Of a stretch of DNA of 64,000 nucleotides, positions 20,272 through 28,238 are shown piece by piece. Source of the stretch: a virus. Taxonomy: Duplodnaviria > Heunggongvirae > Uroviricota > Caudoviricetes. The stretch's first letter is position 1. Each line of letters starts with the position of its first letter. The stretch lies in IMG/VR virus record IMGVR_UViG_2740892441_000001; one strand, 5' to 3'. The notes beneath the pieces were generated by a model. It ran no database searches. It saw nothing but the letters and a program-made list of their open reading frames with translations, and was not told the DNA's origin. The translations under genes were made by a program, and so were the position numbers.

Positions 20272-22305
20272 TTACTTAACCTGGTGGCCAGGTTTAGCAC
20301 CAGCATCCGGGCTTAACAGGAAGATGTCTTTCCCGCCGGGGCCAGCAGCCATCACCATGCCTTCGGAGATACCGAAACGCATTTTACGCGGAGCCAGGTT
20401 AGCCACCATAATGGTGTGACGGCCAATCAGTGCCTGTGGGTCTGGATAAGCGGAACGGATGCCTGAGAAGACATTGCGTTTTTCACCGCCGAGATCCAGC
20501 GTCAGGCGCAGCAGTTTGTCAGAACCTTCAACAAAGTCTGCGTTTTCGATCAGCGCCACGCGCAGGTCAACTTTGGCAAAGTCGTCAAAGGTGATGGTTT
20601 CCTGAATCGGGTCGTCTGCCAGCGGGCCAGTAACTGGCGCGGCAGTAGCTTTCACTTCTTCTTTAGACGCTTCCACCAATGCTTCCACCTGTTTCATGTC
20701 GATACGGTTATACAGTGCTTTGAACGGATTCACTTTATGGCCCAGCAGCGGTTGCTGGATACCATCCCAGGTCAGTTCTGTATTCAGGAATGCTTCTGCA
20801 CGTTCAGTCAGTTTCGGCAGTACCGGCTTCAGGTACGTCATCAGCACGCGGAACAGGTTAATGCCCATAGAGCAAATCGCCTGCAGATCGGCATCGCGTC
20901 CTTCCTGCTTCGCCACCACCCACGGAGCCTGTTCATCGACATAGCGGTTAGCCAGGTCAGCCAATGCCATGATTTCACGGATAGCTTTACCAAATTCGCG
21001 GCTTTCCCATGCTTCGCCAATCACTTCAGCGGCATCAGTAAAGGTTTTGTACAGTTGCGAGTCAGCCAGTTCGCTTGCCAGCACGCCGTCAAAACGCTTG
21101 TTGATAAAGCCTGCATTACGGGAGGCCAGGTTAACCACTTTGTTCACGATATCGGCATTCACGCGCTGAACGAAATCCTCCAGGTTGAGATCGATATCAT
21201 CAATGCGCGAAGAGAGTTTCGCAGTGTAGTAGTAACGCAGGCTGTCGGCGTCAAAATGATTCATCCAGGTGCTGGCTTTAATAAAGGTGCCGCGAGACTT
21301 GGACATCTTCGCGCCGTTCACCGTCACATAGCCGTGAACAAACAGGTTGGTCGGCTTGCGGAAGTTGCTGCCTTCCAGCATGGCAGGCCAGAACAGGCTG
21401 TGGAAGTAAACGATATCTTTACCGATGAAGTGGTACAGCTCGGCGGTGGAGTCTTTCTTCCAGTATTCATCGAAGCTGGTAGTGTCGCCGCGCTTGTCGC
21501 ACAGATTCTTGAAGGAACCCATGTAGCCAATCGGTGCGTCCAGCCAGACGTAGAAATATTTACCCGGCGCGTTCGGAATTTCAAAACCGAAGTAAGGTGC
21601 GTCGCGGGAGATATCCCACTGTTGCAGACCAGATTCAAACCACTCCTGCATTTTGTTTGCCACCTGCTCCTGCAACGCACCGCTGCGGGTCCATGCCTGC
21701 AACATTTCGCTGAAAGAGGGCAGATCAAAGAAGAAGTGTTCAGAATCACGCATTACCGGCGTAGCGCCAGAAACTACCGATTTCGGCTCAATCAGTTCAG
21801 TCGGGCTGTAGGTCGCGCCGCAAACTTCACAGTTATCGCCGTATTGATCTGGCGCTTTACATTTCGGACAGGTGCCTTTCACAAAACGATCCGGCAGGAA
21901 CATGCCTTTTTCCGGGTCGTACAACTGAGAGATAGTGCGGTTTTTAATAAAACCGTTCTCTTTCAGGCGAGTATAGATAAGCTCAGACAGCTGGCGGTTC
22001 TCTTCGCTGTGCGTCGAGTGATAGTTGTCATAGCTGATGTTAAAGCCTGCGAAATCAGTCTGGTGTTCCTGGCTCATTTCGCCAATCATCTGTTCCGGTG
22101 TGATACCAAGCTGCTGTGCTTTCAGCATGATCGGCGTACCGTGGGCATCGTCGGCGCAGATGAAGTTGACCTCGTGGCCGCGCATTCGCTGGTAACGGAC
22201 CCAGACATCAGCCTGGATGTGCTCCAGCATATGGCCGAGGTGGATTGAGCCGTTAGCGTACGGCAGCGCGCACGTCACCAGAATTTTCTTCGCGACTTGG
22301 GTCAT
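20272..22305 (-). CDS. metG: Methionine--tRNA ligase (methionyl-tRNA synthetase), enterobacterial type
   Basis: 677 aa from [26 protein letters not shown]... with HIGH (HLGH) and KMSKS motifs; recalled as near-identical to E. coli MetG; start reassigned to 22305. Confidence 0.97.
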
Positions 22306-22462
22306 AGTAGGCATTACTTCTTTGTAGTGAAAAGGGGCTTGATAGTAACAAAATGGCCTTATGTCTGCCATGTGATAACAGCATTTCTCATAAATGATTA
22401 AATGTCGTAGCTGGAGTACACTACAAGGCGACAATTGCGCAAATTAAAATAAAGGAGACGGG

Positions 22463-23563
22463 ATGAGCGAGTCCAAATCGCCGGATGCCCTGAGAGCAAT
22501 GGTAGCCGGTACGCTGGCTAATTTTCAGCACCCAACCCTGAAGCACAACCTGACTACGCTTAAAGCGTTACACCATGTTGCGTTGATGGATGACACACTG
22601 CATGTCGAACTAATCATGCCTTTCGTGTGGAATAAGCCTTTTGAAGACCTGAAAGAGCAATGTAGTGGTGATCTGCTCCGTATCACTGGCGCAAAGGCTA
22701 TCGACTGGAAGCTGTCGTACAACATTGCCACGCTTAAGCGCGTCAAAAACCAACCAGGCATTAATGGCGTTAAGAACATCATCGCCGTCAGCTCAGGCAA
22801 GGGCGGTGTAGGCAAATCGTCCACAGCAGTAAACTTGGCACTGGCGTTGGCTGCTGAAGGTGCGAAAGTTGGTATTTTGGATGCCGATATCTACGGTCCA
22901 TCAATTCCAACCATGCTGGGTGCGGAAAACCAACGTCCAACCTCACCGGACGGTACTCACATGGCACCTATCATGTCTCATGGCCTGGCAACCAACTCTA
23001 TTGGTTATCTGGTCACCGACGACAATGCAATGGTGTGGCGTGGACCGATGGCCAGCAAGGCGTTAATGCAGATGTTGCAGGAAACTCTATGGCCTGATCT
23101 GGACTATCTCGTTCTCGATATGCCGCCGGGCACTGGTGATATTCAATTGACGCTGGCGCAGAACATTCCTGTAACTGGTGCTGTTGTGGTAACTACGCCG
23201 CAAGATATCGCGCTGATCGATGCGAAGAAAGGCATTGTGATGTTCGAAAAAGTCGAAGTGCCGGTACTGGGTATCGTCGAAAACATGAGTGTGCATATTT
23301 GCAGTAACTGCGGTCATCACGAGCCAATTTTTGGCACCGGTGGCGCACAGAAGCTGGCCGAGAAATACAACACGCAGTTGTTAGGCCAAATGCCACTTCA
23401 TATCTCTCTTCGTGAAGATCTGGATAACGGAACACCAACCGTTATTAGTCGTCCAGATAGCGAATTTACGGCTATTTATCGTGACCTCGCAGATCGCGTT
23501 GCTGCCCAAATGTATTGGCAAGGTGAAGTAATACCTGGCGAAATCGCATTCCGCGCAGTGTGA
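22463..23563 (+). CDS. apbC: Iron-sulfur cluster carrier protein ApbC/Mrp (P-loop ATPase)
   Basis: 366 aa; deviant Walker A SGKGGVGKSS and CxxC motif (CSNCGH); divergent from metG with enterobacterial-type intergenic region. Confidence 0.95.
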   Translation: MSESKSPDALRAMVAGTLANFQHPTLKHNLTTLKALHHVALMDDTLHVELIMPFVWNKPFEDLKEQCSGDLLRITGAKAIDWKLSYNIATLKRVKNQPGINGVKNIIAVSSGKGGVGKSSTAVNLALALAAEGAKVGILDADIYGPSIPTMLGAENQRPTSPDGTHMAPIMSHGLATNSIGYLVTDDNAMVWRGPMASKALMQMLQETLWPDLDYLVLDMPPGTGDIQLTLAQNIPVTGAVVVTTPQDIALIDAKKGIVMFEKVEVPVLGIVENMSVHICSNCGHHEPIFGTGGAQKLAEKYNTQLLGQMPLHISLREDLDNGTPTVISRPDSEFTAIYRDLADRVAAQMYWQGEVIPGEIAFRAV

Positions 23564-23600: not shown

Positions 23601-23990
23601 CTACATCACAGGACAATCATCAAACTCGCCACTTCTTGCGTCGTTGATAATGTGAGTGATCACACCAAACACGGCATTGCTGCCCGTGCATCCATCATCA
23701 TCCTTTGGCAATGCTTCCTTCTTACCAGTTCTTAAATCCTCCAGATGCTGACGTGGATACTTCCGGTATCTTTTTACGCGATATTCCCCATCCAGAGCAC
23801 ATACAAGAAGAGATCCATCAACAGGAGTGAGTGAGGAATCGACCACCAGCAATGCACCCTGCAATATTCCCTCACGATGATGACTATCAGCCGCCCTCAT
23901 GAAGTAGGTCGCTGAAGGATGTCTAATTATCTGCTGATCAAGAGAAATACGGCTCTCTGCATAATCCGCCGCAGGAGATGGGAAGCCCAT
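23601..23990 (-). CDS. UmuD'-like S24 peptidase-fold protein (HumD-like, lacks UmuD N-terminal arm)
   Basis: 129 aa starting MGFPSPAADYAESR, matching E. coli UmuD from Gly25 onward; conserved Ser and Lys positions present; LexA box upstream. Confidence 0.85.
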   Translation of the reverse strand: MGFPSPAADYAESRISLDQQIIRHPSATYFMRAADSHHREGILQGALLVVDSSLTPVDGSLLVCALDGEYRVKRYRKYPRQHLEDLRTGKKEALPKDDDGCTGSNAVFGVITHIINDARSGEFDDCPVM

Positions 23991-25553: not shown

Positions 25554-25852
25554 TCGTCATCCTCATCCGAGTCATCCTCATCACAGGATGAGAGTAGTGG
25601 GTTAGTCATTCGCCCTACTTGAGTGGCGTAGCCACGCCGACAGAGATTGCGCAGCACACTGTATATTTCGAACATCTCGGTTCGTTCATCGCCAACATCA
25701 AGCTCAGATGCTATAGCGTGGCATTCAGTCGCGAGAGCCGATATTTTCTGAAATAACTCTGCTTTATTCACTCTTAGACTCCTGCGGAGGTTCTGGTAGC
25801 GGCATCCAGTGAGTTGCTTGCTCAATACCATTACCCGGCTTAATCGTTGCAT
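25550..25852 (-). CDS. Hypothetical protein with acidic C-terminal tail
   Basis: 100 aa ending CDEDDSDEDDE; start uncertain. Confidence 0.35.
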   Translation of the reverse strand: MQRLSRVMVLSKQLTGCRYQNLRRSLRVNKAELFQKISALATECHAIASELDVGDERTEMFEIYSVLRNLCRRGYATQVGRMTNPLLSSCDEDDSDEDDE

Positions 25853-26498
25853 CTCCGCGCCGAAAGGTGCTTCCGGTATAGCGTGCGGAGCATATTAGCG
25901 GTTCAACCAGAGAGCTATCGAAATTCACCGAAATAAGCACGTTCTGGCCCTTTTCAGGCATTCGCTCACTACAGCTTATCCAACCATCCGGAGTTACCGG
26001 ATTGTTGCCAGCCTCATACGCGACCCTTATCCAGTGCATAAGCATTTCAGTACTTACACATCCACAATCAACATCAATTTTGTCATGCTGCTGTTCCAGC
26101 CATTGCTCAAAAGTTAACTTGTAAGTTTGGCTTACAGGTTTGGCTTCCAGTTCTGCTATGTGATTTTTGGCTGATTCCAACTCAATCGACAATTTTTCCA
26201 ACTGCTCTTTATGATTTTTATATTCCTGATATGCGTGCCAAGACTGACCTTTGCGCACACTATCAGTGATATCAGCAACCTGCTCTGGTGTTAGCGTGGT
26301 CAGTGGCTGTGCTGGAAAAATCATCACTTGCCCGGCATCCCAATCAAAACCCGCCTGAATTGACTGAACCTCAACTGATGGTGTTGAACCGATGCGACCA
26401 GGCGAATGAACAACGATCGTTACATCCATATCGCGACGATGGCTGTGGTTGTTGGACAAAATACGATTCACCGACTCAGAAAATTTGGAAAATTTCAT
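25764..26498 (-). CDS. Hypothetical phage protein (DUF551-like C-terminus)
   Basis: Start set at MKFSKF; C-terminal WMPLPEPP segment typical of a common phage domain of unknown function. Confidence 0.5.
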
Positions 26499-26821
26499 GC
26501 TGACCCCTCTTTCTCTCCCCGGATAATTCTGTTGCACACATCCACACACTCGTCGCAGATGAAAACGGCGTCCCCAGCAATTAACTTTTTGACGGCGTAC
26601 TGGGATTTGTTGCAGAAGCTGCAACAAAGTGTTCGCCTGGCTGATAAGGATGGAGCGCCAGATGTCAGCCGCTCCATATCGTTCTTGCGACGCAATATCA
26701 CACGGCTGAACTCAACCAGTTTCTCCGGGGATATCTCCTCCTCCTCCGTAGCGAGCGTCTCTAGTCGTTCGAGTATGTGGAAGGCTTTTTCCTGGGTAAT
26801 TGCAGAATGCGATGTGGTCAT
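26495..26821 (-). CDS. Small protein with ClpX-type C4 zinc finger
   Basis: C-terminal [31 protein letters not shown] closely matches the ClpX N-terminal zinc-binding domain. Confidence 0.55.
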
Positions 26822-26822
26822 C

Positions 26823-27434
26823 TCACTCTCCTTTGATGCGAATGCCAGGGGCGCGTGGCACATTAACTTCCACGATGCGCACTGTTGGTTTGTACATCTC
26901 AATCGCTGTCAGCCAGTCAGCTCCTGTCATGCGCTTTTCCGCATCGCCATTAGTCCACTGAACCGGTACACCAATAGCCTTCATCGCGATTTCTATTTCC
27001 CCGGCAATGGCGCTTTTTCCGCAACCAGTAAAACCAGATACAACGACCAGAACTTCACCTTTGGCTGGTTTTATTTCCCGTGCTTCCAGTTCTGCAATGC
27101 GCTTACTTCCATCCGAGATAACGCCCTCGTAATACTCACGCTGCTCGTTGAGTTTTGATTTTGCCAACTCCAGTTGTTTTGTTAGTTCTGCAATACGACA
27201 AACATCGTTGATACGCGTTTCCTCTAATGCGTTGCTCTCATCCAGTAGCGCCAGCACGGTTTCTGGTCCGGCCAGAAATTTGAAGGCGTTGAGGGCATCA
27301 ATATCAACACCGCTATCTTTAAGTTCCTGTTCGCTTATCAGATCATCATCAACTGGCAACATTAACAGGCGTTCCATTGCCGGAATTGCACGCTCTGCCG
27401 CCTCACGCAGTGCCTGATAGTCAATCTTGCTCAC
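26823..27434 (-). CDS. Hypothetical protein (Ead/Ea22-like coiled-coil protein)
   Basis: 203 aa; coiled-coil N-terminus, resembles lambdoid ea22-type early proteins by composition. Confidence 0.45.
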
Positions 27435-27874
27435 TGGATGACTCCTTTACGAAGCAGTTCAGCAATACTTACGCATATCTCTGCGCCTCTAATCAGCCCC
27501 GGAACGTTCTTGTTTGGCCCAACTTCACCATCAACAAAATCAATCATCGCGTTACGAGCCATATCCACGCCCTGCGCACGTACTTCAGCCAGAAAAGCAT
27601 CGGTAGCTGGAGTTTCGCTGTGGTGCAGGGCATCGTTGATAATCATTGCAGCAACTCCGGCCTGCCCTGCATCCGTGACCGACACATGCTCAAGAGTTAC
27701 GGCCATTGCGTGTTTCAGCCCAGCGTTCTCTGCCACCAGCGCAGCGAGATTAGTCTCAAGCTCTGAAATTCGGCACGTGGCATCAATATTTGTGTCCTCC
27801 AGCCGCTTAATTTCATCCAGTAGTGCCAGCACATCCTGCGGATGCTCTTCGACCTCTTCAAATTCTTCTTCCAT
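27431..27874 (-). CDS. Hypothetical protein (Ead/Ea22-like)
   Basis: 147 aa acidic coiled-coil N-terminus; start overlaps upstream stop. Confidence 0.45.
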   Translation of the reverse strand: MEEEFEEVEEHPQDVLALLDEIKRLEDTNIDATCRISELETNLAALVAENAGLKHAMAVTLEHVSVTDAGQAGVAAMIINDALHHSETPATDAFLAEVRAQGVDMARNAMIDFVDGEVGPNKNVPGLIRGAEICVSIAELLRKGVIQ

Positions 27875-27908: not shown

Positions 27909-28238
27909 TTATTTTGCTTTGAGCAACTTCATCGCTTCGTCAATGCGTGATTGTGTCCCTGCGTTTGGCTCCACTACCTGAAGGCGGCGGGCATCTTCAA
28001 GAAGTTTCGCAATCATTTCTTTAAGTACTTCGTTATCGTTATTCATGAGCGTGCTCCTGTCAGTTAGCTTTGAGTAACGCGCCGCGATTTGCATCTCCAC
28101 GGTTCCGTCATGCAATGCAACAATCTCTCGGACAGCAACCGGGTGGTTGATGTAGTCTTCGCCGGTATATTTTCTTTTCTGACCAACGCCACCATGAGCG
28201 CCAGCGGCGAACATATGAGCTTCGGAAATACTAGACAT
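27909..28238 (-). CDS. HD-domain protein resembling the RelA/SpoT (p)ppGpp-hydrolase N-terminal region
   Basis: AHMFAAGAHGGVGQKRKYTGEDYINHPVAV...ALHDG matches the SpoT/Mesh1 hydrolase motif including the HD dyad; only 109 aa so possibly truncated. Confidence 0.5.
   Translation of the reverse strand: MSSISEAHMFAAGAHGGVGQKRKYTGEDYINHPVAVREIVALHDGTVEMQIAARYSKLTDRSTLMNNDNEVLKEMIAKLLEDARRLQVVEPNAGTQSRIDEAMKLLKAK

Follow-up and report, generated by a model that had tools for sequence, protein, structure and literature searches.

What does a phage protein do that ends in the docking domain of ClpX but lacks the ATPase to which that domain belongs? The question is raised by a gene of 108 codons in a 64,000-nucleotide stretch of viral DNA (Caudoviricetes; IMG/VR record IMGVR_UViG_2740892441_000001), the whole of which we call the window. 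A first-pass annotation, made from the sequence alone, had described the product as a stand-alone ClpX-type zinc-finger protein without an AAA+ module. It proposed that the protein titrates ClpX adaptors or substrates or pairs with host ClpX, treated residues 1–60 as filler, and suggested an alignment to the ClpX N-terminal domain as a check. Here we describe the gene, its family and its surroundings, and weigh what such a protein might do.

The gene and its two modules

The features to which the text refers are as follows, with window coordinates and strand.

26495–26821 (−): zinc-finger coding sequence, complete, 108 aa plus stop (open reading frame; full-length match to phrog_6797)
26828–26832 (−): Shine-Dalgarno sequence AGGAG, 6 nt 5' of the zinc-finger ATG (read from the sequence)
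26663–26794 (−): predicted N-terminal helical hairpin, residues 10–53, with helices at 10–27 and 32–53 (conservation; AlphaFold)
26630–26662 (−): predicted flexible linker, residues 54–64 (pLDDT below 50 at 57–61; pTM 0.37; length varies among family members)
26513–26629 (−): ClpX-type C4 zinc-binding domain (ZBD), residues 65–103 (Pfam PF06689, PDB 2ds5/1ovx, Foldseek)
26495–26498 (−): ATGA overlap of the zinc-finger stop and the downstream start (sequence; same junction in 31 of 45 loci)
26823–27434 (−): upstream Ead/Ea22-like gene with a C-terminal P-loop-like module (Pfam PF13935, E=1.1e-22)
25764–26498 (−): downstream gene with a phrog_6026 N-module and C-terminal DUF551 (DUF551 E=1.6e-23; phrog_6026 E~2e-55)

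The open reading frame at 26495–26821 is a real gene on the minus strand, as its Shine-Dalgarno sequence, spacing and homologues attest. Its ATG occupies 26821–26819 and its own TGA 26497–26495. Directly 5' of the ATG at 26821 lies AAAGGAGAGTGAG, which includes the AGGAG at 26832–26828, and the TGA of the upstream gene (26825–26823) ends a single nucleotide before the start codon. At the other end the zinc-finger TGA overlaps the ATG of the downstream gene (26498–26496), an ATGA arrangement that suggests translational coupling of the two genes. A longer version started at TTG (135 aa) was rejected: it overlaps the upstream gene by 80 nt, and homologues start MTTSHSA instead. Coding on the minus strand also fits the dN/dS values below 1 found in the more diverged pairs. 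The opposite strand carries a 250-aa open reading frame (26406–27158, +), which lies opposite the zinc-finger and Ea22-like genes and misled a simple longest-ORF gene caller. Because the minus-strand gene has homologues, domains and dN/dS below 1, we take the antisense frame to be probably a spurious by-product of the minus-strand coding sequence.

[quoted passage not shown] Pfam PF06689 (zf-C4_ClpX) matches residues 66–101 with E=1.3e-15 and 57.4 bits (cutoff 27). The suggested alignment to ClpX, which we ran against the E. coli ZBD structures 2ds5/1ovx, covers residues 63–103 at E~7e-15 (7.5e-15) with 68% identity over 41 residues, and the AlphaFold model of the domain, a predicted treble-clef structure, lies on 2ds5_A at 0.5 Å over 38 columns (Foldseek; TM (target) 0.86, 71% identity). 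As a sequence match this is far beyond chance, and 68% identity to E. coli ClpX is roughly what the ZBD of ClpX from a distantly related bacterium would show. Four putative zinc ligands, C67 (26621–26623), C70 (26612–26614), C89 (26555–26557) and C92 (26546–26548), have the CxxC-18-CxxC spacing of ClpX, align to its C14, C17, C36 and C39, and are invariant in all family members. The complete set of invariant family columns is C67, S68, F69, C70, I88, C89, C92, V93 and C96 or, in ClpX numbering, the ligands plus S15, F16, I35, V40 and C43. F16 of the docking patch (F69 here) is therefore kept across the family, and I46 of the same patch (I99 here) is I, V, L or A, and hydrophobic, in 15 of 16 sequences. 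The A-G-P turn usually conserved in ClpX reads A-G-D/E in the close clade of the family (63% identity or more), within which surface positions of the ZBD also vary. From these features we infer that the protein binds zinc, and by analogy with ClpX it is probably a dimer. The absence of an AAA+ module was likewise borne out: the NCBIfam ClpX equivalog models TIGR00382/PRK05342 reach just 39.7–42.2 bits against cutoffs of 359–371, on residues 63–105 only, scores that fall so far short because there is no AAA+ module, with its Walker A/B, pore loops and IGF loop, to match.

The remainder of the protein is not filler. Residues 1–60 contain a conserved, confidently predicted, family-specific helical hairpin, and among 22 relatives the N-terminal stretch is as conserved as the ZBD. 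AlphaFold gave the hairpin a pLDDT of ~83–91 when supplied with an alignment of 24 sequences that included deep-branching members; a shallower alignment gave lower confidence. Taken with a linker pLDDT below 50 and a pTM of 0.37, the predicted structure is one of two folded modules joined by a flexible or disordered tether. The presence of the conserved hairpin makes the zinc-finger protein more than a free ZBD. The hairpin is without known homologue in Pfam and structure searches and without match to SspB, RssB or IraD/M/P, and it is seen only with this ZBD, never alone. Neither the whole protein nor its N-domain matches PF13935 (Ead/Ea22), a family found in the neighbouring genes only. As for a built-in XB-like motif or degron, the candidates 'LRRK' in helix 2 and 'MTTSHSA' at the N-terminus were set aside, both being conserved among close relatives only; 'LRRK' is not kept in deep-branching members.

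Relatives, neighbours and genomic settings

The protein matches PHROG 6797 over its full length (E=6.6e-57, residues 1–107 on profile positions 1–106 of 107). In RefSeq the homologues appear as 'ClpX C4-type zinc finger protein', and PHROG 6797 is listed as function unknown. An old RefSeq name, 'Carboxylate--amine ligase', has no Pfam or NCBIfam support and was treated as a propagated misannotation. The family is thus already catalogued, under its RefSeq name, as PHROG 6797 and in the supplementary tables of Rousset (PMC9122126), so the bare observation of such a protein is not new. What appears to be undescribed in the searchable literature is the hairpin, its pairing with the ZBD in a protein of two modules, and the cos-proximal position, set out below, that the gene keeps in P2-like phages.

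An exhaustive profile search found the full two-domain architecture in only about eight 50%-identity clusters and a ZBD-like domain in 15,254 clusters (E<=1e-3). Nearly all of the best-scoring 150 of these 15,254 have a length unlike that of ClpX, and many contain 2–6 tandem ZBDs. With the domain reused in more than 15,000 clusters, a ZBD by itself is no marker of the ClpX pathway. The metagenomic proteins P0031–P0037, P0048 and P0053 have 2–6 tandem ZBDs and no AAA+ module (221 aa with 4 copies and 654 aa with 6, for instance), an abundant architecture on which we found no literature. P0029 fuses a ZBD to another domain, and P0069 is a 115-aa chimera in which an Ea22-like N-terminus (…AAENAGLK, as in the window gene at 27431–27874) replaces the hairpin and is joined to the family linker and ZBD. 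Other phages, independently, also encode very small stand-alone ZBDs, namely phrog_12435 and a 65-aa protein of Pseudomonas phage PP9W2.

Within the family, ZBDs are on average 66% identical to the E. coli ClpX ZBD and 60% identical to one another. In the deep-branching members, whose N-domains are 29–49% identical, the ZBD is 63–85% identical to ClpX, and the most divergent members are the most ClpX-like. This pattern fits a constraint to stay ClpX-like. Comparisons with the diverged P88 homologue gave dN/dS of 0.19–0.49 for each of the two domains wherever a value could be computed; in some close pairs the ratio approached or exceeded 1, with very few changes counted, and the ZBDs of the window and of phage-plasmid D6 differ by 2 synonymous and 10 non-synonymous changes. 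In the close clade the ZBD is more variable than the N-domain, which could reflect relaxed constraint rather than mimicry. Truncated family fragments also exist.

Gene order was compared across 45 loci. An Ea22-like gene lies directly upstream of the zinc-finger gene in 30 of them and no more than one or two genes away in nearly all close-clade loci. On the other side, a phrog_6026 module of ~112 residues opens the downstream gene at the same ATGA junction in 31 of 45. This constant N-module is followed by differing C-termini (DUF551 in the window), which points to recombination breakpoints inside the gene. Because only the close clade shows this association, it may reflect nothing but linkage. 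We looked for an obligatory partner gene and rejected the idea, since the neighbours on both sides differ between backbones and none is conserved in all contexts. The upstream gene of the window (26823–27434, −) combines an Ea22-like N-terminal coiled coil with a C-module bearing a Walker-A-like GFTGCGKS and a weak APS-kinase match (E~0.01); this C-module was seen in one other locus only (L036). The zinc-finger reading frame is intact in 43 of the 45 loci. Two IMG/VR loci (L016:4001-4420 and L038:3971-4390) have lost the ZBD helix to a frameshift immediately behind ICDEC, and their zinc-finger frame continues into the phrog_6026 gene downstream. A pseudogene, a natural fusion and an error of sequencing could each explain this.

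The window itself is collinear with E. coli plasmids and phages of ~106–110 kb (pEC881_2, PhiR41_1, CMS-2020a), whose gene content includes rnhA, metG, apbC, a UmuD'-like gene and Ea22-like arrays and, we assume, resembles that of SSU5-type phage-plasmids. By megablast, 109 of the 5,426 complete genomes of E. coli searched carry the zinc-finger gene, and of its 110 matching places 104 lie on plasmids; a scan of species-representative genomes gave no match. Homologues are found in the P1-like phage-plasmid D6 (orf93) and the P2-like phage P88 (gp19, 50% identity), and the gene is now known on four phage backbones.

Other genes of the window merit a brief record. An S24-family gene at 23601–23990 (−), in the same gene array and 2.5 kb downstream of the zinc-finger gene, encodes a product starting MGFPSPAADY, which we take to be the point at which E. 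coli UmuD' begins after self-cleavage; read in this way from its sequence, it would be a pre-activated UmuD' (HumD-like) homologue on a phage-plasmid. Open reading frames at 20272–22434 (−) and 22463–23563 (+) correspond in length and location to metG (methionyl-tRNA synthetase) and apbC/mrp of the collinear pEC881_2 and, if confirmed, would be housekeeping-type genes carried by a phage-plasmid. The HD-domain frame at 27909–28238 (−) encodes 109 aa, against 213 aa at the matching position of pEC881_2, and is possibly truncated or replaced.

In P2-like prophages the gene order runs gpA, ParM/StbA, StbB, a 66-aa gene, the zinc-finger gene, a 169-aa gene, an Ea22-like gene and portal. All four deep-branching members (N-domain 29–49% identical) occupy other P2-like prophages, where the zinc-finger gene stands last after gpA and before the convergent ogr/portal genes, and no Ea22-like neighbour was found at these four loci. 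The position last after gpA and next to cos is kept in six diverged P2-like prophage lineages. At three of the four deep-branching loci the gene directly adjoins conserved non-coding, cos-like sequence (…GAGTCTGTCAGGGCGAGGAAGCGGAAT.ACTGAGG…, immediately downstream at L048:4391-4500, L049:4343-4450 and L051:2717-2830). This sequence resembles a P2-type cos region; if it is one, the zinc-finger gene would be the right-most gene of the linear genome. The gpA–gpQ hotspot next to cos carries old/tin and many defence systems and also partition systems, and arrangements listed as 'StbA + Plasmid_stab_B + zf-C4_ClpX ...' occur in the supplementary tables of the same study, whose main text describes no test of them (PMC9122126). 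Membership of a defence system was considered for the zinc-finger protein and rejected, as it has no match to any defence model in PADLOC-DB 2.0; the sole match among tested neighbours is a marginal, unrelated one for the HD gene (E=0.001, Type I specificity subunit).

A free docking domain and the proteolysis of ClpXP clients

ClpXP controls lambda O, MuA, the Mu repressor, sigma-S via RssB, UmuD' and some antitoxins (Phd), and both UmuD and UmuD' are substrates tethered to the ClpX ZBD. Neher is said to have described UmuD, in 2003, as a ZBD-tethered delivery factor. The isolated recombinant ClpX ZBD was reportedly used as a competitor in vitro by Wojtyra in 2003 and by Thibault in 2006, and Wojtyra's study is also said to have found that the ZBD is constitutively dimeric and very stable as a dimer.

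SspB, RssB, trigger factor and substrates such as lambda O all dock on the ClpX ZBD, through a hydrophobic patch to which F16 and I46 belong, and degradation of lambda O requires the domain (PMC7804408). Deletion of the ZBD abolishes docking-dependent reactions and leaves degradation of ssrA-tagged substrates in place (PMC7226468). Purified ZBD supplied in trans at 5–20 µM inhibits RssB-dependent degradation of sigma-S by 0.6 µM ClpXP, an effect that needed a roughly 8- to 33-fold excess of ZBD over ClpXP (PMC7226468). Since the domain docks ligands and inhibits in trans when purified, a free ZBD made by a phage would be expected to compete.

The reading we prefer, tentatively and at somewhat less than an even chance, is that the zinc-finger protein is a trans-acting decoy for adaptors or substrates that dock on the ClpX ZBD. 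The functions originally proposed for it, titration or pairing with ClpX, are plausible, with binding to ClpX partners and an effect on proteolysis both argued by analogy. A phage early or accessory operon would express a free and probably dimeric ZBD that mimics the docking platform of host ClpX. This ZBD would bind the short peptide motifs by which adaptors and substrates dock, candidate ligands being SspB-tail-like or RssB-like motifs, N-domain-dependent substrates of the lambda-O or MuA kind, and UmuD. Ligands so held would be kept from ClpXP, so that some phage or host proteins would be stabilized. The hairpin may add a second contact that confers specificity or avidity, for example through oligomerization or a particular client. 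Replication initiators are possible clients because the zinc-finger gene follows gpA in P2-like phages, and by context another could be the UmuD'-like protein of the window, pre-cleaved in form, whose gene lies 2.5 kb further downstream.

The main rival to the decoy is a use of the domain that has nothing to do with ClpX, possible in our view though doubtful, in which the ZBD is a zinc-ribbon module for dimerization or peptide binding and the work is done by the hairpin or together with Ea22-like neighbours. ClpX-type ZBDs occur in thousands of non-ClpX architectures: the 15,254 ZBD clusters, the tandem arrays of 2–6 copies among the best 150 and the P0029 fusion all speak for it, as do the P0069 chimera with its Ea22-like N-terminus, the proximity of an Ea22-like gene in nearly all close-clade loci and the variable ZBD surface of that clade. 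Set against this are the deep-branching members, whose ZBDs have stayed as much as 85% identical to host ClpX as the remainder of the protein diverged and which have no Ea22-like neighbour, and the invariance of F16. We consider it less likely again, and on balance unlikely, that the protein is an adaptor that reprograms ClpX, its hairpin binding a phage or host protein and its ZBD joining ClpX through mixed dimers or docking on the ring, so that the bound protein is delivered to ClpXP, specificity is changed or entry is blocked. Two folded modules on a flexible tether are also how SspB and other tethering adaptors are built; the N-domain matches the ZBD in conservation and never occurs alone; and early or replication operons are where the gene is found. 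No partner gene, however, is conserved across all contexts, and if the ClpX ZBD dimer is as stable as reported, a foreign ZBD would not be expected to exchange into it easily.

Location invites a further explanation, namely that the gene is cargo of the P2 cos-proximal hotspot serving exclusion, defence or counter-defence, for example by perturbing proteolysis that a competing phage needs. In P2-like prophages it does lie between gpA and gpQ, in the defence-rich old/tin hotspot, and 'StbA + Plasmid_stab_B + zf-C4_ClpX + ...' is in the supplementary tables of the hotspot study, but the hotspot also holds non-defence cargo such as partition systems (PMC9122126). PADLOC returned nothing beyond the marginal, unrelated match of the HD gene, and the zinc-finger gene is co-oriented with the early operon, all of which makes this explanation improbable to our minds. 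That the gene is what is left, without function, of a captured clpX 5' end is largely refuted and scarcely credible. The two IMG/VR loci in which a frameshift fuses the ZBD to the next gene, and the truncated fragments, are what a remnant would leave, but 43 of 45 loci keep the frame open throughout, dN/dS is below 1 in diverged pairs, and the gene has a conserved extra domain, a good Shine-Dalgarno sequence, apparent translational coupling and a place on four phage backbones.

Relation to known systems, and what the family may mean

Several small proteins stabilize selected proteins by blocking their delivery to AAA+ proteases or the proteases themselves, among them IraD/IraM/IraP, lambda RexB, CIII, T4 PinA and T7 Gp4.5, several of which are horizontally acquired or phage-encoded. 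These anti-adaptors and protease modulators have no sequence or fold relation to the zinc-finger protein. To our knowledge none of IraD/M/P, RexB, CIII, PinA and Gp4.5 copies a protease domain, their targets being the adaptor or the enzyme.

With ClpX itself the phage protein shares the (here predicted) ZBD fold, the CxxC-18-CxxC spacing, 68% identity over 41 residues and a patch of the F16/I46 type. It differs in that its ZBD is C-terminal in a 108-aa protein, preceded by an unrelated hairpin and followed by no AAA+ module, and in that the A-G-P turn has become A-G-D/E in the close clade. A functional parallel is the isolated recombinant ClpX ZBD, also a free ZBD without ATPase, whose inhibition in trans is the mode of action proposed here; that, however, is a laboratory fragment supplied at large excess, whereas the phage gene is natural and encodes an extra domain (PMC7226468). 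Proteins such as phrog_12435, the 65-aa PP9W2 product named 'Clp protease' and the metagenomic multi-ZBD proteins resemble it in having a ZBD and no AAA+ module, but they lack the N-terminal hairpin and are equally uncharacterized in the searchable literature, where full-text searches turned up no work on the function of a stand-alone ZBD from any phage.

Should the protein prove unrelated to ClpX, the ZBD would be a general-purpose module, a result that bears on thousands of 'ClpX zinc finger' annotations. Should it be a ClpX mimic, it would offer a simple, portable way to stabilize phage or host regulators controlled by ClpXP, and a means of telling ZBD-dependent and ZBD-independent proteolysis apart in living cells. 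Taking decoy and adaptor together, we put it at not quite an even chance that a phage mimic of the ClpX docking domain, equipped with a hairpin of its own, rewires the substrate choice of ClpXP, having long been kept next to cos in P2-like phages and later passed into phage-plasmids. If true, this would be the first protease-domain mimic by which phages control the regulated proteolysis of their hosts.
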